Position numbers and translations under genes: made by a program. Below are positions 6,183 through 43,683 of a stretch of DNA of 43,683 bases, one piece after another (position 1 is the first letter of the stretch; every line of letters begins with the position of its first letter). The stretch lies in the IMG/VR virus record IMGVR_UViG_3300043478_000025. One strand, written 5' to 3'. This DNA is from a virus. A model generated the notes under the pieces. The model made no database searches. It was given only the letters and a program-made list of their open reading frames with translations, and had not been told where the DNA came from.

Positions 6183-7923
6183 CGCTGCCCTTTAGATCTT
6201 CCTCGTTTAGTTCGCCGGTCATTTGTAGTGCAGGCTTCGCAGCCTCTGGTTCTCTAGCAGAAGTCTTTTCAAACCAATGGTCTGTGTTCCTGTTCAGGAA
6301 CAGCGTGCTGGTTCCACTGAGGAACCTAGTCTTCACACCATCGAATTCTACACCGCTTTTGGAACGCTGCATGATAAACACGGTATTGGCACGATCACCG
6401 AAGACACGGCTGCCGTAAGCGTCGTCTATGGTGAACCTGTAGTTCTTGACTCCGGCAGGTACCTTCCTCGGGTGTGCAATTACGATGCACCATATTCCGA
6501 GTTGTTGTCGGAGTCTGTCAATCCAGTCGGCAATCTTTCTTGCACCAGTCTCATCCTGTAGGCTTGTCTTAGTCGAAGCCCCAAGAGTGTCCAAGATAAA
6601 GCCGGAGAAGCCACCGTCTCGAAGTCGTTTCTCGTATGCCTTCTGGTTTCGTTCATCGTCAAGAGCTACAGCCTGTCCGGTTGCACGAGTCTGGAAGTAT
6701 TCTTCTAGGTGCTCAAGCTCATCAGTCGTCATGTTGTTCGACATTGGTAAGAGGAACTCTGTAAGCTCAGCGCTGTTCATTTCATGGCTGGCTACGTAGA
6801 TTTTCTCTGCTCGCTCTCGCTGTTCAATCTCGAACCCTAACCACGACTTCTTGCTTAATGCGATCGTGATTCCGAGGTTGAACGCCAGGGTTGTCTTGCC
6901 GATCCCTGTAGGTCCAACGAGATACATCAAACCTTTGTTGCCGAGAACTCCTGGGATGATCCATTCGATTCGTGGACTCTTTGTGATCAGAGTCTTGAAA
7001 CCTACAGCCTCATTCCAATTGATGTCGTCGTCAGCAACTGGCGGTGGTTCGTCGGTAACGATTCTGATGGGCGGGGTCGTCTTCTCTTGAGCCCGGTGTA
7101 GGATAGTATCTAGTTGTTCGTTCCTGTCGGAACGGTTGTCGAATTTGCCCCATTTCTTGGCAGCTTCATCGACGATGTGTCGTGCTTCTTCTAGTGCGAA
7201 CTCTTCTTCGAGTAACCTACACGCTAGCTCGAACAGCTTGTCGGAACGGGTTCCTTCGGATGGCTTGGAGTTGTAGAGCTTCTTCGTGTACTCCGTTAAC
7301 TCTTCCCACCGTTGGATCGAAACCTCTTCCATGCCGAGTTTCGGCGTGAGAAGGTTCATCTGAGGAAGCCTGAACTCTGTCAGATCGAAGACTGTACCGT
7401 GGTTCTCTAGGAGAGAGACTGGTTTCGGTGGAGTGTGTTTGTGGTTGAAAGTACCGGGGATCCGGAGTAATTGTGTAGGATCATGTCCGGACTTATCTGC
7501 ACCAGGAACTGCGTTTCCAAAGAAACGGTTCGTCTCTAAAAGTGCCTCACGCCCAAGCCACGCCTCAGATCGTCGGTACTGGTGGACCCTACCGACGGAG
7601 CCCGAGGCGACCAGGAGGCCGGCAGGCGGGCAGCTAGGGCCGTCTCGTGGCACGTCCGTTGGCAGGTCGTCCACATCGGCCCAGCTAACCCAGCTACCTA
7701 GACAAAATTCCATCCGGCGTCTTTGGACGTGAAAGAGCGCAGGAGTGAAATAGACATCACCCTGCGCTCCTAGTTGTTGAACTTTGTTTTCCGAGACCCG
7801 AGAGATTCCATCGGGTACTTTGATGAACCATTCCTTTGCTGGCTTTCCACCTTTGAAGAGTGAAAGCGCAAAGTAACCCTCTTGGTCGCCACCGAAGACG
7901 TAGTCGAAGAACTCATTGAGCAT
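6166..7923 (-). CDS. Bifunctional primase-polymerase (AEP) fused to a RecA/DnaB-type helicase/ATPase
   Basis: N-terminal AEP motifs: WADVDD (DxD), GSVGRVHQY (sGxGxH), LLRIPGTFNHKH. C-terminal Walker A VGPTGIGKTTLA, Walker B FILDTLG, and IVIAHPRK. Confidence 0.8.
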   Translation of the reverse strand: MLNEFFDYVFGGDQEGYFALSLFKGGKPAKEWFIKVPDGISRVSENKVQQLGAQGDVYFTPALFHVQRRRMEFCLGSWVSWADVDDLPTDVPRDGPSCPPAGLLVASGSVGRVHQYRRSEAWLGREALLETNRFFGNAVPGADKSGHDPTQLLRIPGTFNHKHTPPKPVSLLENHGTVFDLTEFRLPQMNLLTPKLGMEEVSIQRWEELTEYTKKLYNSKPSEGTRSDKLFELACRLLEEEFALEEARHIVDEAAKKWGKFDNRSDRNEQLDTILHRAQEKTTPPIRIVTDEPPPVADDDINWNEAVGFKTLITKSPRIEWIIPGVLGNKGLMYLVGPTGIGKTTLAFNLGITIALSKKSWLGFEIEQRERAEKIYVASHEMNSAELTEFLLPMSNNMTTDELEHLEEYFQTRATGQAVALDDERNQKAYEKRLRDGGFSGFILDTLGASTKTSLQDETGARKIADWIDRLRQQLGIWCIVIAHPRKVPAGVKNYRFTIDDAYGSRVFGDRANTVFIMQRSKSGVEFDGVKTRFLSGTSTLFLNRNTDHWFEKTSAREPEAAKPALQMTGELNEEDLKGSDDIDL

Positions 7924-7947
7924 CCCTCCCTCGATTCTTTCTTTTCC

Positions 7948-8054
7948 CAGCCACGGGAACTCTGTCTCTCTACCCGAAAAGCCGTACCCTCAGGATTAGA
8001 GAGTACGGCTAGTCAGGATTCCCGTGGCTGTGGAATTACCCCGGAAGGGCGGGG
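7948..8054 (-). terminator. Nested hairpins/terminators between the SSB-like and primase genes
   Basis: CCCCG/CGGGG hairpin at 8039-8054, just after the 8058 stop. Perfect 12-bp arms cagccacgggaa (7948-7959) / ttcccgtggctg (8019-8030) enclose an 8-bp stem agccgtac (7980-7987) / gtacggct (8003-8010), which is followed by a short U run on the minus strand. Confidence 0.6.
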
Positions 8055-13866: not shown

Positions 13867-13895
13867 ACAGTACCATAGGGCCGAAACCCCGTCAA
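13867..13895 (-). promoter_or_regulatory. Host sigma70/HrdB-type promoter candidate
   Basis: On the minus strand: TTGACG (13895-13890), 17-nt spacer, TACTGT (13872-13867, fits TANNNT). It is followed by a ~100-nt GC-rich structured leader with GTGAGG...CCTCAC arms. Confidence 0.5.
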
Positions 13896-16205: not shown

Positions 16206-16236
16206 GGAACTACACCAGGACATCTAGTGTAGAACC
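16206..16236 (-). repeat. GGAACTACA-family intergenic hairpin (copy b)
   Basis: Plus strand: ggaactacac-caggacatcta-gtgtagaacc. The stem CTACAC/GTGTAG is flanked by conserved GGAA...AACC (two mismatches then two G-C pairs). It lies 16 nt after the stop at 16252. Confidence 0.75.
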
Positions 16237-17536: not shown

Positions 17537-17562
17537 GGAACTACACCCTGAGGTGTAGAACC
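17537..17562 (-). repeat. GGAACTACA-family intergenic hairpin (copy a)
   Basis: Plus strand: ggaactacacc-ctga-ggtgtagaacc. 7-bp stem with a 4-nt loop and conserved GGAA/AACC flanks. Lies 18 nt after the SNF2 stop. Confidence 0.8.
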
Positions 17563-17579: not shown

Positions 17580-19541
17580 TCACTTCTTGTTGAGCCAGTC
17601 CTGGAGCTTGTTTCTCCATTCACTGGCCCGGAGTGCTGTGTGTTCGGTGATTCCTTCCGCCTCCATGATCTTGTCTTCGCAAATGCCGTCGATGATGTTG
17701 TCGACAGTTCCGTCGCAGATGTACTTGTGAACCGTTACCGGCTCCAAGCAATCGAGCCTCCAAGCTCGATCTTCTGCCTGTAGGTTCCGCTGTGGGTTGT
17801 ACCAACGATCCAACATGATGACGTTGGAACTTCCTCCATCCCACCGCTTGTCTTTGTGTAGATTCAGACCTTCGGCGCCGGCTCCCATGTTCAGGATCAG
17901 GACGTTGATCTTGTTGTCCTGGAAATCCTTCTCGATGTCTGCCGTATCTCTGGTCGTAAGCCTCTTGTCTCCGGTGATGGCTTCGCAGGACAATCCCATC
18001 TCCTTGAATCGCTCCATGAGATAAGCGATCGGAGAGTTGAACTGAGCACTGAAGATCAGAACGTTCTCCTTCTCGGACATGACCAACTCGAAGACATGCT
18101 CTGCGCAGTAATCGAGCTTGACGAGAGGACCGTTCAGGTGCTTGAGCACCTTCTTCTTCTGGATGTTCCCGTCGTTGTCCTTGATGATGAACCCGTTCTG
18201 GTCCTTGATCGGAACCGAAACGTTGAAGTCCTCAGCGACCAGCGAGATGCGAGCGTAGTGGAGTTCTGCCAGGATTCCGGCAATGGAAACCATGTCGTCG
18301 CCGAGTTCGTCCAGCTTGATCATGAAGTCTTCCATGACCTGCTTCTGGAAGTTCCAGAGATCGCTTCCTGGACTCATCTCCACGAAATGCTCCTGGTAGA
18401 GCTTGTCGTGCATGAACAAGCCGATTTCCTTCTTCGTCTTGCGGAAGAAGTTCGCTGAGATGACTCGCATGATGAGTTCGATCGAGATTCCGATCGAGTA
18501 AGCCATCATGAAGGTCCGCTTGAAATGCTGACGGCTCGGGAACTGAACGGGATTGAACAAGTGGGTGTAAGCCCAGACTTCTTCGCTTCCGTTGTTGATC
18601 AGAGAACCCGACATGAAGATCGGGAACGGACGACCTTCGGCCTTAACCTCGAAAGCGTCATCGTTCCATTGGTACTTGGAATGTCCGGCCGGCAATGCAA
18701 CTACACGCATGCTTTCGGTTCCGTGGAGAAGCTTCTTGAGTCCCAACCACATCTTGGTAGGACCAGAAGCGTTTGCACCACCACGAAGTCGGTGCATTTC
18801 GTCGACTGCGATGACCATCCAATCACGCTGCTCGAACTCCTTCATGAGAGAAGTGTTCAGAGCTTCGTAGTTGGTGATGTAAGTTTCCGGAAGTCCGGCA
18901 GCCTGTAGGGTTTCGCCCATGAAGTTCAACATGGCGACTCTGGTGTCGGAAGCTCCGAGAAGAGGAACGATGTTCAATCCCCATTCCTTGCACTGACGAG
19001 CGGAAGACTTCACGAGTGCGCTCTTAGTCAGCCAAAGACACGGAGCCTTCGGAAACAAGATGCGCAAGCCTCGGATCGTCATTGCGGTCTCAGCAGTCTT
19101 ACCGAGCGAGGTATCGTTTGCGTTGAAGATACCCCACTGACCGGTAACTTCTGGACGCAGGAAACGATCCCACGAGAAGATCAGATCTGCCTTCTGGTAG
19201 TCTCGGAGCTTTGTCCACTCCGGCCACTGGCTTACGCCAGAAAGGATCTTCTCCAACGGAGGGTTGGTAAGGTCCGGTTCCTTCTGAAGCTTCTCACGAG
19301 CTTCCATCTTCGCTCGTGCCAAACCTCGTTCGGCGACTTCCAGATCTGTTCTTGCGTTCGTCTTCTGGAAGTAGGCGGTCTGCTTCTTCTGACGAGCAAC
19401 CTCCAACTTCTCTCGGAGTTCGTTGAGTTGGACTGAAAGCTGGCGGACTTCCTCGTCCAGAGTATCGTACTCCGAATCCAAGTCCTGGATGCTTTCGGTT
19501 AGCTCACGAACCTTGTCACTGAAATCTTCGATGTCTCCCAT
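17580..19541 (-). CDS. SNF2/RAD54-family helicase with an N-terminal coiled coil (653 aa from ATG 19541)
   Basis: Motif I DTSLGKTAE, motif II DEMHRLRGG, motif V GAGAEGLNL, motif VI WYNPQRNLQAEDRAWR. The track start at 19625 would translate through hairpin 19585-19616. ATG 19541 is preceded by ACGAGAGAGAAC. Confidence 0.85.
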   Translation of the reverse strand: MGDIEDFSDKVRELTESIQDLDSEYDTLDEEVRQLSVQLNELREKLEVARQKKQTAYFQKTNARTDLEVAERGLARAKMEAREKLQKEPDLTNPPLEKILSGVSQWPEWTKLRDYQKADLIFSWDRFLRPEVTGQWGIFNANDTSLGKTAETAMTIRGLRILFPKAPCLWLTKSALVKSSARQCKEWGLNIVPLLGASDTRVAMLNFMGETLQAAGLPETYITNYEALNTSLMKEFEQRDWMVIAVDEMHRLRGGANASGPTKMWLGLKKLLHGTESMRVVALPAGHSKYQWNDDAFEVKAEGRPFPIFMSGSLINNGSEEVWAYTHLFNPVQFPSRQHFKRTFMMAYSIGISIELIMRVISANFFRKTKKEIGLFMHDKLYQEHFVEMSPGSDLWNFQKQVMEDFMIKLDELGDDMVSIAGILAELHYARISLVAEDFNVSVPIKDQNGFIIKDNDGNIQKKKVLKHLNGPLVKLDYCAEHVFELVMSEKENVLIFSAQFNSPIAYLMERFKEMGLSCEAITGDKRLTTRDTADIEKDFQDNKINVLILNMGAGAEGLNLHKDKRWDGGSSNVIMLDRWYNPQRNLQAEDRAWRLDCLEPVTVHKYICDGTVDNIIDGICEDKIMEAEGITEHTALRASEWRNKLQDWLNKK

Positions 19542-19584
19542 GTTCTCTCTCGTTTGTGTGTTGTCCGCCAGTCGAGTAACTGGT

Positions 19585-19616
19585 GGAACTACAGCAACTG
19601 TAGTTGCTGTAGAACC
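19585..19616 (-). repeat. GGAACTACA-family intergenic hairpin (copy g)
   Basis: Plus strand: ggaactacagcaac-tgta-gttgctgtagaacc. 10-bp stem with conserved flanks. Lies 10 nt after the stop at 19626. Confidence 0.8.
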
Positions 19617-19625
19617 GTCAATCAC

Positions 19626-20114: not shown

Positions 20115-20169
20115 GGAACTACAGGAAGTTGTTCCTGTAGAATCCTCAAGCAACGAAGGGAACTACACC
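20115..20169 (-). repeat. GGAACTACA-family hairpin (copy c) plus an extra half-site
   Basis: Plus strand: ggaactacaggaa-gttg-ttcctgtagaatcc (20115-20145, 9-bp stem). An additional ggaactaca lies at 20159-20167, directly after the stop at 20171. Confidence 0.75.
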
Positions 20170-20170
20170 T

Positions 20171-20356
20171 TCATGCTTTCTCGATGTCGTTACCGTCGAT
20201 CCACTCGTCTAGCTCGGTGTCGTCGAAACGAACCAGGCAACGAATGACCAGAAGTGAATCCTCCGAAGTGTCGATCTCGCACACTTGGAGAGTTCCTGTC
20301 ATCTCTTCGTTCCCGATGACTCGGACCTTGTCGCCTACGTAGAAGTCGGTAGCCAT
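20171..20356 (-). CDS. Hypothetical small protein (61 aa)
   Basis: ORF-track ORF and the first gene after promoter 20441-20469. Leader is CGACTACTGAAAAGAGACAGAGA. Confidence 0.6.
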   Translation of the reverse strand: MATDFYVGDKVRVIGNEEMTGTLQVCEIDTSEDSLLVIRCLVRFDDTELDEWIDGNDIEKA

Positions 20357-20440
20357 TCTCTGTCTCTTTTCAGTAGTCGGCTTTAAGTAGCAAACGCTAC
20401 GGTGCGCCGCCCGGTAGGCAGTACCCTGGCGGGTGCGGAC

Positions 20441-20479
20441 ATCTTAGCATAGGTCCCTTAGCTTGTCAATAGCTAAGGG
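20441..20479 (-). promoter_or_regulatory. Near-consensus sigma70-type promoter with its -35 box centred in a perfect 9-bp palindrome (operator candidate)
   Basis: Minus strand: TTGACA (20469-20464), 17-nt spacer, TAAGAT (20446-20441). Palindrome cccttagct (20455-20463) / agctaaggg (20471-20479) brackets the -35 hexamer. Confidence 0.65.
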
Positions 20480-20607
20480 AGAAAGCTTTTCGTAGAAAGG
20501 TAGAACTGGTTTCAAGGGAACTACAGTTAAAAGGCTTTAAGTGGCCCACTTTCCACGAAGAAATTCGGGAAGCGAACGGGTTATGGGGGGGCGAACAGGC
20601 GTTCGGT

Positions 20608-20792
20608 TGTAGAGATCTCTACATCTGTAGATTTGTCTACAGTTGGGGTGTAGAGATTCCTACAGGCCGACAGGGGGTCTGACCTGCGGTTTGTCGAGAA
20701 GTCTACAGGGGCGGTGTAAGAATCTCTACCAGCCGCTTGGAAGGGGTGAAACCCCAATTCCAAGGGCGGAGTGGAATGTAGACATCTCTACA
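20608..20792. repeat. Cluster of TGTAGA/TCTACA palindromes plus a strong stem-loop (candidate origin or multi-operator)
   Basis: tgtagagatctctaca 20608-20623 (perfect 16 bp). ctgtaga-tttg-tctacag 20625-20642. gtgtag-agattc-ctacag 20648-20665. tctaca...tgtaaga 20702-20721 (imperfect). tgtaga-catc-tctaca 20777-20792. Stem-loop cttggaaggggt-gaa-accccaattccaag at 20736-20764. Confidence 0.75.
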
Positions 20793-20875
20793 GGGGCGTC
20801 GAAACCTCTACACGACTTATAGGCGTTTTCCGCTACTGTAGGATCAATACGGACCCCAAACTAACGGAAATTGGT

Positions 20876-20957
20876 AAGCGGCCACGTAGCTGTATGACCC
20901 CGCGTGTTACAAAGTTGTCATACTTTAAAGCGGCCCTGTAACTGTATGAACCCCGCC
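20876..20957. repeat. Imperfect ~29-bp direct repeat pair
   Basis: aagcggccacgtagctgtatgaccccgcg (20876-20904) versus aagcggccctgtaactgtatgaaccccgcc (20928-20957), about 25 of 29 positions identical. The spacer holds tgttacaaagt, which also occurs in the 22.6-kb control region. Confidence 0.7.
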
Positions 20958-21006
20958 GCCGGCGGTTCGGCGAACGCCGTTCGTCTTTCGACGTTCGGCC
21001 GAACGT
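20955..21006. repeat. GC-rich CGAACG/CGTTCG palindromes
   Basis: ccgccggcgg 20955-20964, cgaacg-c-cgttcg 20971-20983, and the perfect 16-bp acgttcggccgaacgt 20991-21006. A related cgaac-aggc-gttcg lies at 20592-20605. Confidence 0.65.
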
Positions 21007-21007
21007 A

Positions 21008-21025
21008 GGGGAGGTTTCCCTCCCC
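21008..21025 (-). terminator. Stem-loop terminator candidate after gene 21032..21256
   Basis: Minus-strand GGGGAGG-GAAA-CCTCCCC: perfect 7-bp stem with a GNRA-type tetraloop, 6 nt after the stop. There is no clear U tract. Confidence 0.5.
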
Positions 21026-21031
21026 GTCGTT

Positions 21032-21256
21032 CTAGCAGTCGTAGCCGGCGCAGTAGAGGATATCCTCTTCCGCCTTGTTCCAGTTCGAGGCGTACTGTTC
21101 GGCGAGAATGAGTAGGACGTGTTCTGCCATCTCTACCTGCCCGGAGTCGATTCCGTGCTTCTCGACGGCCCGAGTGTAGTACCCCGCCGCTTTCACGAGA
21201 AGCGGATACCGCTCGCACTTTCGGATTTCGTTCATCTGCTCTTCGGTCATGAACAC
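21032..21256 (-). CDS. Hypothetical protein (74 aa)
   Basis: ORF-track ORF, starting at GTG 21256 or ATG 21250. The overlapping ORF 20925..21284 is judged a shadow. Confidence 0.6.
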   Translation of the reverse strand: MFMTEEQMNEIRKCERYPLLVKAAGYYTRAVEKHGIDSGQVEMAEHVLLILAEQYASNWNKAEEDILYCAGYDC

Positions 21257-21337: not shown

Positions 21338-22144
21338 TCAGCCGACCTTCGTCAACCAGATCTTCCGGTTCTCGTGAAGGACCGCTTTCTTCGGCTCTTC
21401 GTCACCGACGGCGAAGTAGTCGGAGTGCCAGTTGTCGAACTTCTCCGCAATCTCCGCCGGCTTCTTGACGCCGAAGAGCTTGAAAGCCGCTTCTCCGAGC
21501 GTGGCGCACTCGAATAGCGCACCGTTGACCACGAACTTGACGTTCGTGTTGTGCGCTCGGAGCGCTCCGACGTTCGTCACCGTGACTTCGGCAGACTTCT
21601 CCGCCGGAGCGTTTGGGATGATCCACGTTCCGTCTTCTCGCCTCCCACCGAACTTCTTGATCGTCGGGAGATCGAGGATCATCTTGACGGTCATCTTCTC
21701 GATCACGCCCTGCTCGATCATCGTGACAGTTCCGTTCAGAACCTTCACGAGCGTCGCCCGAACTTCTCCGAGATCCGTGTCGGCCGGAATCTGTCCCCGG
21801 ACGTTCTTCTGCGCATAGCGCCCGAAGAGCTCGGAGAGCAGAACGGTCATGAGATCGTTCAGCTTTCGCTGGAAGAGCAGGAGACCGTTCGTGGTCGCCG
21901 TCGTGAACATCCATTCTTGGATGTTCGTCAGTTCCGGGAGCTCTTCGGTCGACTTTTCGTCGATCGACTGCGCCGCTTTCCACTGAGCGAAGTTCTGGTC
22001 GAACTTCCCCGTCAAGATCTGGTGTGCCAGATCGTAGAAAGCCGCCTTCTCTTCCAGGATCCGCAGACCGTTGTTCACGGACGAATCCTCGTGATAGACC
22101 ACTTCCGGAGTCTCCGCCGGTTCGGTCGTGTTCTCGTCTTCCAT
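21338..22144 (-). CDS. Abundant-looking early protein (268 aa), function unknown
   Basis: Strong G/C-ending codon bias gives long shadow ORFs (21402..22214, 21551..22171, 21432..21818). Leader is CAAGAAAGAGGCAAGC. No TGTAG/CTACA inside the gene. Confidence 0.75.
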   Translation of the reverse strand: MEDENTTEPAETPEVVYHEDSSVNNGLRILEEKAAFYDLAHQILTGKFDQNFAQWKAAQSIDEKSTEELPELTNIQEWMFTTATTNGLLLFQRKLNDLMTVLLSELFGRYAQKNVRGQIPADTDLGEVRATLVKVLNGTVTMIEQGVIEKMTVKMILDLPTIKKFGGRREDGTWIIPNAPAEKSAEVTVTNVGALRAHNTNVKFVVNGALFECATLGEAAFKLFGVKKPAEIAEKFDNWHSDYFAVGDEEPKKAVLHENRKIWLTKVG

Positions 22145-22425: not shown

Positions 22426-22451
22426 TTTGTCCCTCTCGCTTGTGTAGTTCC

Positions 22452-22479
22452 ATTCTAGCGTCCGATTCCCGTTTCGCAA
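22452..22479 (-). promoter_or_regulatory. Sigma70-type leftward early promoter candidate
   Basis: Minus strand: TTGCGA (22479-22474), 16-nt spacer, TAGAAT (22457-22452), immediately followed by GGAACTACA. Confidence 0.55.
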
Positions 22480-22577
22480 CTCCGCTCCGAAACTTTCTTT
22501 CGGATCCGATTCTTGCGTTCCGTCCGTTTCGCTTGTGATATCAGTTTACCGGGTCCGGCCGGAAACCCACGCCGAAA

Positions 22578-22765
22578 CGTGTTACAAGATCTTGTAATAT
22601 TGTGACGAACCGAAATATTACGGTAATACTGCGATCGTGTGACAAGTGTTACGATTCGTAATATAGTGCTCGCTATATTACGATTGTTACAAAGTCATGA
22701 CATTGTAATATAATGCGTGCTATATTACGGGCCTGTTACGATTGTTACAGTTGTATTACGAAATC
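22578..22765. repeat. AT-rich repeat array of GTTACA / GTAATAT boxes in the divergent control region
   Basis: Perfect 16-bp palindrome ttacaagatcttgtaa at 22582-22597. 10-bp arms cgtaatatag/ctatattacg at 22657-22682. 8-bp arms gtaatata/tatattac at 22705-22728. 14-bp direct repeat ttacgattgttaca at 22678-22691 and 22736-22749. Confidence 0.8.
22686..22714 (+). promoter_or_regulatory. Rightward (late-operon) promoter candidate embedded in the palindromes
   Basis: GTTACA (22686-22691), 17-nt spacer, perfect TATAAT (22709-22714). The -10 lies inside palindrome 22705-22728. A second TATAAT is at 22898-22903. Confidence 0.4.
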
Positions 22766-22966: not shown

Positions 22967-23371
22967 GTGACTAATAACCCATTGGTCTCTTTCCGAAACC
23001 GTCTCGGTTTAACTCAACTCGAACAGGCTCATCAGTGTGCTCTAGCTGTAGTCCTCATTCAAGCCCAAGAAAAAGGCATTCCTCACCATTTACACCCGCG
23101 CTTCCTCTCGACGTTCCCTGACGCCGTCGAATTAATTCCTGCCTACCATGACTTCCGAACTTCAGTTCGCAGAGAGAATTGGCCTCGGGGTGTAACTGTA
23201 GTTCCCAGTAACGGCCCAGAATTCGCTGAATTCCTGCGTTCGAGTGGCCTCAGCGGAGCTGAGTTCAGTGAGAAGGCATGTATGCCGTTGATAGACATTA
23301 ACTACACCCTACACCATTACCGCATCCCGAGTACACTTATTCGCTTTTTTGAGGAAATCAATGGCCAGTAA
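22967..23371 (+). CDS. Putative DNA-binding protein with two HTH-like segments (134 aa, GTG start)
   Basis: GGAG lies 5 nt before the GTG at 22967. FRNRLGLTQLEQAHQCALAVVLIQAQEKG and FAEFLRSSGLSGAEFSEKACMPLIDIN resemble XRE-type HTH. The track's N-terminal extension from 22742 runs through the repeat array. Confidence 0.5.
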   Translation: MTNNPLVSFRNRLGLTQLEQAHQCALAVVLIQAQEKGIPHHLHPRFLSTFPDAVELIPAYHDFRTSVRRENWPRGVTVVPSNGPEFAEFLRSSGLSGAEFSEKACMPLIDINYTLHHYRIPSTLIRFFEEINGQ

Positions 23372-24056
23372 GCAAGTCCAGTCGACTGTAGCTCTCATTG
23401 AGACGTATTACTGGAAGTTCCGTCGCTTGCCGACGTCTGACGAAGAACTCTTCAGAGAGTACCTCGTTGAAACCTGCCTAGCCGAAGTCTTCGCTAACGC
23501 GAGGTACCTTAAGTACCTGAGCGCTAACGGGGTTCCTGTAGACGGGACGCCTACTCTGACTCCGAAACAAGTGCGATGGATCGACTTACTATGCTCCGCC
23601 GGAGATGGTCGACCAATTGCGGCTAAGATGAAGAGCTTCGGAATCACGCTCTCACAGCACAACGCTTGGCTTAAGAACCCGTTGTTCCAGAGTGCCCTAC
23701 AGACACGTCTTGAACAAATTCTACCAGACGAGCGTTCTAGAGTTCACCAAGCGCTAAGCCGTGAAGCTTCTGGTGGAAACGTTAGTGCCATCAAGCTTTA
23801 CTTAACGCTAACGGGAGAGCTAACAGAAGGAACAAGCTCCGATAAATCGGAGGCAGCTAATCTCATGCAAGGGATTCTCGAAATTCTTGAGGCCCACGTC
23901 GACAGAAACGTGCTTTCAGCTCTCGCCAACGATTTCGATTACTTGCTCGTGCACGGCACGCCACCGGCTCGTAAGCTTAGGGCTGTAGGAGCTGTAGTTT
24001 CCGAAAAAACCGAGAACGTACTGGAATTGGTACTAAACGATGACGACATTTCGTGA
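23361..24056 (+). CDS. terS: Terminase small subunit (231 aa from ATG 23361)
   Basis: Lies immediately upstream of and overlapping TerL. An HTH-like block (IAAKMKSFGITLSQHNAWLKNPLFQSAL) is typical of small terminases. RBS GAGGAA lies before the ATG. Confidence 0.6.
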   Translation: MASKQVQSTVALIETYYWKFRRLPTSDEELFREYLVETCLAEVFANARYLKYLSANGVPVDGTPTLTPKQVRWIDLLCSAGDGRPIAAKMKSFGITLSQHNAWLKNPLFQSALQTRLEQILPDERSRVHQALSREASGGNVSAIKLYLTLTGELTEGTSSDKSEAANLMQGILEILEAHVDRNVLSALANDFDYLLVHGTPPARKLRAVGAVVSEKTENVLELVLNDDDIS

Positions 24057-43466: not shown

Positions 43467-43683
43467 CAGCCAGTGTACCTCATTATGTTGCGGATCATCA
43501 TTGCCTGAGCAATCGCGTCATTGATTGCGATATGCGGGAGAAGACCGATACTCTCGGGCGTGACGAGCCAGCCATCAGGCATAAAAGCTTCCTCTCTGGA
43601 ACCCCCAAGCATAGCTGGATTGCGAAGTACACCAGCAGCATAGTTCTTGAGACAGAGAGGAGAGTAGCCAAACGGATTCCTCC
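43466..43683 (-). CDS. DEDDh exonuclease, C-terminal part (43557-43683 duplicates 1-127)
   Basis: Stop TGA at 43468-43466, overlapping the next ATG by 1 nt. Encodes ...PESIGLLPHIAINDAIAQAMMIRNIMRYTG, which includes the Exo III H-x4-D. Confidence 0.8.
   Translation of the reverse strand, partial: RNPFGYSPLCLKNYAAGVLRNPAMLGGSREEAFMPDGWLVTPESIGLLPHIAINDAIAQAMMIRNIMRYTG
43557..43683. repeat. Exact 127-bp terminal direct repeat, copy 2
   Basis: Identical to 1-127. Unique genome length is therefore 43556 bp. Confidence 0.95.

Follow-up and report, generated by a model that had tools for sequence, protein, structure and literature searches.

A 675-bp stretch without genes (20357-21031; the gap) interrupts the leftward gene array of the virus genome in IMG/VR record IMGVR_UViG_3300043478_000025, and is densely filled with repeats, palindromes and hairpins. 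The window, i.e. the whole stretch of DNA that was analysed, comprises 43,683 nucleotides. Positions 1-127 are exactly repeated at 43557-43683, so that the assembly is circular with a unit of 43,556 bp. A second assembly of the phage has 43,697 bp, i.e. 43,556 + 141, which fits a k-mer-sized overlap with k = 141. The GC (guanine plus cytosine) content is ~50%. The phage belongs to a soil actinophage-like podovirus clade that is known almost solely via metagenomes and in which most genes are unannotated. It has the genes of a lytic podovirus-like phage, and among cultured phages its relatives are lytic too, with direct terminal repeats.

Gene layout and borders of the gap

Minus-strand genes extend from 484 to ~22,430, and plus-strand genes from ~22,740 on. 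The left arm codes for DNA polymerase I, a primase-helicase, a Sak4-like annealing protein, an exonuclease and a SNF2-type helicase; the right arm opens with a small-terminase-like helix-turn-helix protein (by Pfam), followed by the large terminase. The gap lies inside the leftward array, and its minus strand is the gene strand. It is flanked upstream by a 74-amino-acid (aa) gene (21032-21256), which together with genes for 64 and 268 aa forms a short leftward unit, and downstream by a 61-aa gene (20171-20356). The long leftward operon on this side comprises small genes and the genes for the SNF2 helicase, exonuclease, Sak4, primase-helicase and DNA polymerase. The probable start of the SNF2 helicase (17580-19625, minus strand) is ATG 19541 and not GTG 19625, which gives a protein of 653 aa identical to database protein P0001.

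For comparison, relatives were retrieved with the helicase and the 268-aa protein from soil metagenomes; all are uncultured, and their contigs are coded L016-L033. A first-pass annotation, made from the letters of the window, had seen no credible open reading frame (ORF) in the gap. This assessment held, as gene callers left the equivalent gap empty in eight related contigs, and a tblastx comparison of gap against gap returned just short matches on both strands at DNA motifs and no conserved ORF. The 60-aa ORF at 20581-20763 had no Pfam match. Throughout the window, neither the Rfam covariance models (gathering score) nor the ARAGORN scan for transfer RNA gave a match. A missed small gene or a structured non-coding RNA would agree with the ORFs of 56-60 aa on both strands and with the several stable hairpins, but is hardly credible, given that no ORF is kept in any relative and that the Rfam and transfer RNA scans were empty. 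Moreover, the repeat units are constant in the stem and variable in the loop, as is characteristic of dimer sites in duplex DNA and not of RNA hairpins read by proteins, and the sole promoter-like site points outward from the gap. A DNA similarity search against GenBank phages found no match to the gap region, and scans of IMG/VR with the 268-aa protein, the helicase and a double-palindrome pattern yielded unrelated coding-sequence matches only.

The elements of the gap are given below in the direction of the gene strand, with the source of each in brackets. A motif denotes a directional repeat, B site the palindrome TGTAGA-N4-TCTACA, C site a palindrome between the A copies, and P2 the promoter of the gap.

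21001-21032, minus strand: terminator-like GC hairpin with the core GGGGAGG-GAAA-CCTCCCC (inverted repeat and RNA fold)
20955-21006, no strand: cluster of GC-rich CGAACG/CGTTCG palindromes (hexamer scan)
20928-20957, minus strand: A motif copy 1, ATACAG(C/T)TAC-NN-GGCCGCTT (repeat finder and relatives)
20905-20922, no strand: C site, palindrome TATGACAA-CT-TTGTAACA between the A copies (shared box and relatives)
20876-20904, minus strand: A motif copy 2, 52 bp from copy 1 (repeat finder and relatives)
20608-20812, no strand: B array, seven phage-specific 16-bp palindromes (repeat finder and mismatch scan)
20608-20623, 20626-20641, 20649-20664, 20692-20707, 20715-20730, 20777-20792 and 20797-20812: the B sites, in fixed 6-N4-6 form
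20736-20764, no strand: bulged GC-rich hairpin within the B array (fold; hairpins of relatives)
20678-20686, minus strand: conserved box CAGGTCAGA in the B array (blastn islands and motif comparison)
20585-20605, no strand: G7 run and CGAAC-AGGC-GTTCG palindrome at the promoter-proximal edge of the array (sequence)
20480-20560, no strand: AT-richer (adenine plus thymine) stretch between array and P2 (57-63% AT in a neighbourhood of 46% AT)
20441-20469, minus strand: promoter P2, TTGACA-17-TGcTAAGAT with an extended -10 (promoter scan and alignment)
20357-20434, minus strand: predicted 5' leader of ~78 nt with GC hairpins, up to the ribosome-binding region AAAGAGACAGAGA and ATG 20356 (fold)

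The stop codon of the 74-aa gene marks the start of the terminator-like hairpin, which folds with -26.1 kcal/mol (z = -4.9). L016, L017, L018, L022, L028, L029, L032 and L033 have an equivalent hairpin after the stop of the upstream gene; with the window included, z ranges from -3 to -4.9. The hairpin of the window has no U tract and was not called by the terminator scan; L033 and the cultured phage Jasmine have a T run. P2 lies ~530 bp beyond this hairpin and is predicted, from its sequence, to be a sigma-70/sigma-A-type promoter for the 61-aa gene, the SNF2 helicase and the rest of the replication operon. All seven genomes of an alignment share TTGAC and, in the -10, the A and the T. In the whole window the pattern TTGAC-N15-17-TGNTANNNT has two matches, one of them P2, versus 0.13 expected. 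The other match (13867-13895, minus strand, TTGACGGGGTTTCGGCCCTATGGTACTGT) has the core CCTATG-TA in common with P2 and is possibly a promoter internal to the left arm. A perfect 10-bp inverted repeat at 20454-20480, which is not conserved in the relatives, holds the -35 of P2 in its loop. The predicted leader folds with -25.8 kcal/mol (z = -1.9), and just a weak 5' hairpin is shared across the relatives. Taken together, hairpin, P2 and leader indicate that the gap is very probably the boundary between the short three-gene unit and the long helicase/replication operon. The first-pass survey had overlooked its two best-supported elements, the terminator-like hairpin and the conserved promoter (20469-20441).

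Repeat families and their conservation among relatives

The most conspicuous part of the gap is the B array, a cluster of seven sites in 205 bp with irregular spacing (18-62 bp). The site at 20608-20623 is the perfect 16-mer TGTAGAGATCTCTACA. Allowing up to two mismatches, the B pattern has nine matches in the whole window versus 1.45 expected, and none of 100 shuffles reached nine. Six of the nine lie within the array and the three outside are 2-mismatch matches, while the site at 20715, with three mismatches, was detected by the repeat finder. Genome-wide, the B sites are confined to the array, without a good match elsewhere. The earlier description of these palindromes was right as to their presence and the perfect 16-mer, but not as to the number of five and the N0-7 spacing, since there are seven sites and all have N4.

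Further elements are embedded in the array or adjoin it. The bulged stem-loop at 20736-20764, already seen in the first pass, is stable (-22.2 kcal/mol, z = -4.2), and a GC hairpin of different sequence occupies the same array position in L016, L017, L018, L022, L028 and L033. L017, L018 and L022 carry the CAGGTCAGA box in their gaps in the orientation of the window; L016 has a variant of it, and L020 an inverted copy. The edge at 20585-20605, of which the G7 run (20585-20591) had likewise been correctly noted, is kept only in L032 among the relatives. Its palindrome (20592-20605) fits the GAAC-N4-GTTC core of Gram-positive/actinobacterial LexA boxes. The AT-richer stretch contains the motif TGTAGTTCC (20517-20525) and overlaps the upstream region of P2. 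In six of seven genomes, a 60-bp window that begins 53-76 bp upstream of the -35 ranks among the three richest in AT within 3.5 kb.

The part of the gap nearer to the terminator-like hairpin contains the A motifs, the C site and GC-rich palindromes, all of which bear on repeats reported in the first pass. The 52-bp period proposed there is real (20876-20901 versus 20928-20953, 85% identical). Across the clade the A motif takes the form ACAGCTA-N3-GGCCGC or TTCAGCTA-N4-GCCG. One to three gap copies of CAGYTA-N4-GYCG, throughout on the gene strand, are present in the window, L016, L017, L018 and L022, and two to three copies of the A motif in the gaps of L028, L029 and L033; beyond the gap there are just two looser matches, in L016 and L020. 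The C site has the GTTACA/GTGACA hexamers that also make up the -35 boxes of the rightward promoters at 22639-22726. In L032 it is a perfect 18-bp palindrome, TGTTACAACTTTGTAACA, and in L016 four C-type sites are interleaved with A motifs. A box said to be shared with the control region at 22.6 kb was indeed found at 20905 and 22685 (TGTTACAAAGT). Taken alone it is weakly significant, being equalled in 3 of 100 shuffles, and the relatives support it as part of a recurring TKACAA-N2-3-TTGTMA palindrome. The claimed CGAACG/CGTTCG palindromes were also recovered, with six hexamer matches in the gap versus ~0.8 expected from the genome-wide density. They include the perfect palindrome ACGTTCGGCCGAACGT at 20991-21006 and CGAAC-AGGC-GTTCG at 20592-20605. 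The cluster is poorly conserved even in the closest relative, L032, where it is rearranged and carries a 19-nt deletion.

All fetched relatives have a non-coding gap of ~370-950 bp at the equivalent place. L016, L017, L018, L022, L028, L029, L032 and L033 share one arrangement with the window along the gene strand: a stop codon, a GC hairpin with a GAAA-type loop, two to three A copies interleaved with TKACAA-N2-3-TTGTMA palindromes, a palindrome array broken by a variable GC hairpin and the CAGGTCAGA box, an AT-richer stretch and the promoter. L020 is also listed with the conserved architecture and phage-specific B sites. The repeat families had been called unrelated, which does not hold, as they stand in a fixed order that is conserved across relatives. 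Within this scaffold the palindrome itself is rewritten.

Window: TGTAGA-N4-TCTACA
L028: GGCAGA-N4-TCTGCC (268-aa protein 80% identical to that of the window)
L017: CGTAAC-N4-GTTACG
L020: GTAAC-TATA-GTTAC
L018: CGTTCC-N4-CGAACG
L033: GTGTTAC-N4-GTAACAC
L016: CCACA-TT-TGTGG-like

Each palindrome is confined to the gap of its own genome and absent from the other genomes, except for the motif common to L017 and L020. As far as the tools and the literature checked go, this combination of a conserved scaffold with a palindrome that is rewritten between close relatives and has no identifiable reader is undescribed for the clade. Terminal-repeat junctions, terminators and promoters are already known kinds of element.

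L032, whose 268-aa protein is 93% identical to that of the window, diverges unequally by segment. The ~530 bp between the last A copy and the start codon show 8 differences, all outside the palindrome array; a further 9 fall in the initial 105 bp of the downstream gene, and ~19 in the A-motif zone of 75 bp. In place of the upstream 74-aa gene, L032 has an unrelated small zinc-ribbon gene (L032 ~620-800), with the joint exactly at the terminator hairpin. The zinc-ribbon gene is also present in L016, L017, L028 and L029. In this comparison, mosaic exchange goes together with a strongly conserved array. The sharp mosaic joint, the near-identical array between diverged flanks and the stepwise half-site change from TCTACA to TCTGCC (in L028) at 80% identity of the 268-aa proteins all fit a lineage-specific re-targeting by module exchange. 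A relative from Manatee Spring (MW202795) was rejected for comparison, being too distant and without a comparable gap.

The position of the B sites relative to P2 bears on the regulatory switch that the first-pass annotation had offered as one reading of the gap. If the switch were purely transcriptional, the B array would be the operator field of a phage-specific repressor or activator that times P2, and would have no role in replication or packaging. We consider this quite improbable. The nearest B site lies 139 bp from the -35 of P2 in the window, the corresponding distance is ~30-106 bp in the relatives, and the array never overlaps the promoter in any genome (~30-140 bp). B sites are missing at every other promoter region, the divergent control region included, and the near-consensus P2 should need no activator. 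The perfect inverted repeat that brackets the -35 in this phage would suit a switch, but is not conserved; the conserved hairpin, the CAGGTCAGA box and the A repeats would have no obvious role. On the other side, 16-bp 6-N4-6 palindromes are typical of helix-turn-helix dimer sites, the C palindrome reuses hexamers of the divergent control region, and the gap is flanked by a terminator and a conserved promoter. The flanks agree with the earlier reading, whereas the palindrome array, which never overlaps the promoter, supports it poorly.

The anatomy of the array also resembles that of partition and recombination sites: ParB/SopB-type centromeres look like arrays of 16-bp palindromes, and the arms of res and attP are multi-site. 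Nevertheless, a parS-like centromere of a plasmid prophage or an attP/res-like recombination site has a very low probability here. No ParA, ParB, integrase, resolvase or protelomerase was detected among the larger ORFs, which were scanned with Pfam and PHROGs, and the lytic podovirus-like gene content and the lytic cultured relatives with direct terminal repeats speak against it.

The TCTACA half-site of the B array recurs in a dispersed intergenic hairpin motif, (T)TCTACA-N8-14-TGTAGTTCC, with four exact matches versus 0.03 expected. By pattern scan, the copies were found on the minus strand at 16207-16232, 17538-17558, 19586-19612 and 20116-20140. They lie ~25 nt upstream of start codons in the helicase operon, and their inner stems are variable yet complementary; one of them becomes intergenic with the ATG 19541 start of the helicase. 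TGTAGTTCC also occurs at 20159-20167. The motif is present in L018 too (7920-7952), whose array palindrome differs. It could be an intra-operon terminator/attenuator or an RNA processing site.

Probable genome terminus, possible origin and candidate palindrome readers

The best cultured matches of the large terminase are Casserole, Jasmine, Brad and Adat (39.6-39.8% identity) and Shocker (37.8%), over 87-89% of the protein. Jasmine and Adat are Arthrobacter podoviruses of the genus Jasminevirus, and Shocker is a Microbacterium phage. At such modest identity, membership in this terminase clade gives a probabilistic indication of the packaging type. Direct terminal repeats were verified in the deposited records of Jasmine (1330 bp; also listed in PMC5513430, Table 1), Adat (1551 bp) and Shocker (484 bp). 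In all three phages the repeat starts just past the stop of one or more short leftward genes beside the divergent region, and just upstream of a long leftward operon with a SNF2-type helicase. The gap occupies the equivalent slot of this matching gene order. The helicase of the window has a distant homologue in Jasmine gp49 (E = 3e-10).

The corresponding gaps of Jasmine (694 bp) and Adat (689 bp) are similar in length to that of the window (675 bp). They contain, in order, a terminator hairpin, directional CTTTGTT repeats, the terminus, GGATAG/CTATCC arrays and a promoter, TTGACA-17-TGcTACGCT, and the terminus lies inside the inverted repeat ACCCCTCTACC-N13-GGTAGAGGGGT. Both gaps and that of the window have, in the same order, a hairpin, directional repeats, a dyad element, phage-specific short arrays and a TTGACA-17-TGnTAnnnT promoter. 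The repeat units differ, being GGATAG/CTATCC and CTTTGTT in Jasmine and Adat, but 16-bp 6-N4-6 palindromes and ACAGCTA-N3-GGCCGC in the window. In Shocker the terminus lies at the centre of the palindrome GACC|GGTC, and its neighbours are CGATCG palindromes in the unique DNA and three CTTTACAGG repeats within the terminal repeat.

The Jasmine terminus is separated by 258 bp from the -35 and by ~324 bp from the terminator. Scaled to the window, these distances would place a terminus roughly at 20680-20730, beside the central hairpin and the CAGGTCAGA box; by the same analogy, the hairpin at 20736-20764 is a candidate genome-terminus site. The dyad elements present here are this hairpin and the perfect palindromes at 20608 and 20991, together with the repeat arrays and the outward P2. 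A and B sites are essentially confined to the gap in every genome, as expected of a single-copy cis site, and the 127-bp circular overlap is compatible with a collapsed terminal repeat or with circular permutation. Terminal repeats are collapsed in de Bruijn assemblies. We favour the reading that the transcription-unit boundary also holds a genome terminus and the packaging junction, as it accounts for the synteny, the length of the gap, the sequence of its parts, the dyad elements and the restriction of the sites to a single locus. Its probability nonetheless falls somewhat short of even. The first-pass annotation had correctly named packaging initiation among its options, and the synteny with three phages of known ends points to the boundary of a direct terminal repeat; its caution that the function is not assignable from sequence alone still applies.

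According to this proposal, which builds on the synteny with Jasmine, Adat and Shocker, the virion DNA would be linear with a direct terminal repeat. One repeat boundary would lie in the gap, at or near the central hairpin or a palindrome, and the repeat would extend from there across the three-gene unit to the divergent region near 22.65 kb, over ~1.9 kb. At the concatemer junction, the A and B sites would set the place for the terminase or for an accessory protein that defines the end. The terminator would shield the site from incoming transcription, and transcription from P2 would lead away from the site towards the replication genes. The other boundary of the repeat would, by analogy, be located in the divergent region at 22450-22760.

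This divergent control region is itself dense in TGTKACRA, TTGTAATA and ATATTACG repeats and contains the perfect palindrome TTACAAGATCTTGTAA at 22582-22597. Its promoter-like sites are three overlapping rightward ones (22639-22726) and one leftward (22479-22452).

Several observations weigh against a terminus in the gap. The cultured phages with known termini, Jasmine, Adat and Shocker, are distant analogues (terminase ~39% and helicase 21% identity). Genes internal to the repeat are not homologous: they are Lsr2-like in the Jasmine-type phages and 64-, 268- and 74-aa orphans here. The classic place of pac or cos sites, upstream of the small terminase gene, corresponds to the divergent region at 22.45-22.75 kb and not to the gap. 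The 44,342-bp contig of L024, a distant relative, breaks off within the divergent region at a point 152 bp upstream of its first leftward gene, which may be coincidence or may point to a physical end or a repeat at that place. A circular assembly equally fits circular permutation by headful packaging, and a clustered array of dyad sites beside an AT-richer stretch is also origin-like. Finally, the small terminase was ruled out as the reader of the B sites, and no B-binding protein was found among the candidates compared.

Replication origin had been the headline reading of the first-pass annotation. In an iteron-type origin, a dimeric phage-specific initiator would bind the seven B palindromes and the adjacent AT-richer stretch would melt, aided by negative supercoiling behind P2, upon which primase-helicase and DNA polymerase I would load. 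Such an origin may coexist with a terminus, as the two functions are not exclusive. We regard it as unlikely, although several features are in keeping with it. The seven clustered dyad-symmetric sites are unique in the genome, and an AT-richer window adjoins the array in six of seven genomes. The array, which heads the replication gene operon, is insulated by a terminator and stands upstream of a strong promoter that fires away from it, and the embedded GC hairpin could serve as a priming signal. The site specificity shifts among relatives on a constant scaffold, much as lambdoid ori/O pairs vary in specificity at constant architecture. Direct support was, however, not obtained: there is no recognisable initiator, the 268-aa neighbour being without Pfam, PHROG or Foldseek (PDB, BFVD) match, and no protein was found to co-vary with the B motif. 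The AT-rich stretch is mild (~62%) and coincides with the promoter upstream region. The GC-skew analysis that had been suggested as a check was run and showed no inflection at the gap. The same anatomy is explained by synteny with a terminal-repeat boundary.

The search for a protein that reads the palindromes covered several candidates. The small terminase was excluded as B reader, since it is evenly ~67% conserved across relatives with unrelated B sites; the small terminase subunit could instead be the reader of the A motif. A 134-aa helix-turn-helix-like protein (22967-23371) encoded ahead of the small terminase gene (23349-24056) varies just slightly in its putative recognition helix, and the first leftward gene is not conserved between relatives. 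For the palindrome GTAAC-N4-GTTAC, common to L017 and L020, no ORF within 8 kb on either side was closer between these two than to L016.

The 268-aa protein (21338-22144, minus strand) is conserved in position in the clade and is 36-47% identical between relatives, versus 77-87% for its neighbours. It has no Pfam or PHROG match, and its AlphaFold2 model (predicted local distance difference test, pLDDT, 73) matched no PDB or BFVD structure in Foldseek. Among 1.8 billion proteins, a profile search returned 20 representatives only. Its C-terminus (the last ~60 residues) is weakly similar to Listeria-Bacteroides (InlB B-repeat, beta-grasp-repeat) domains. As domain, fold and profile searches gave no evidence of DNA binding, the protein was not retained as palindrome reader.

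It is nevertheless the sole positional candidate in a more speculative proposal, to which we assign a low probability, namely that the array is a 'self-address label' made of a conserved scaffold (hairpin, CAGGTCAGA box and A repeats), a lineage-specific palindrome and a fast-evolving reader of possibly new fold. Such a label would limit replication or packaging to the phage's own DNA during co-infection by relatives.

If the gap does hold a terminus as favoured above, the genome can be oriented from predicted ends, the strongest early promoter is located, and the gap supplies a compact cis element in which close relatives keep the scaffold but differ in the recognition sequence. It also raises the question how related phages keep their packaging or replication machinery off each other's DNA. 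For annotation, dense repeats by a promoter in circular phage contigs should not be taken as an origin by default.

Comparison with known systems

In lambda, the O protein binds four regularly spaced dyad-symmetric iterons, and ori lies inside the O gene. Lambdoid ori sites are ~16-19 bp long and differ in sequence among related phages, and an AT-rich neighbour as well as nearby transcription contribute. Unlike lambda ori, the array described here comprises seven irregularly spaced sites (18-62 bp apart) in non-coding DNA, with no initiator identified.

Phage operator arrays, such as OL/OR of lambdoid phages, the conserved inverted repeats of phiC31 and the p4 sites of phi29, overlap or abut the promoters that they control, and recur at several promoters. 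The B sites are like phage operators in being palindromic, dimer-type, intergenic and bounded by a promoter, but they neither abut the promoter nor recur.

At the concatemer junction of T7, the terminal repeat is flanked by arrays of short repeats, and strong promoters for the host RNA polymerase, located just within the end, lead into the early genes. Duplication of the repeat has been linked to an element near the junction that can form a hairpin. The T7 repeat measures 160 bp, the phage encodes its own RNA polymerase, and its genes all lie on one strand; phage-specific arrays of dyad sites are not a T7 feature. The gap resembles this junction in its arrays of short repeats, its hairpin element and a strong promoter directed into the replication genes.

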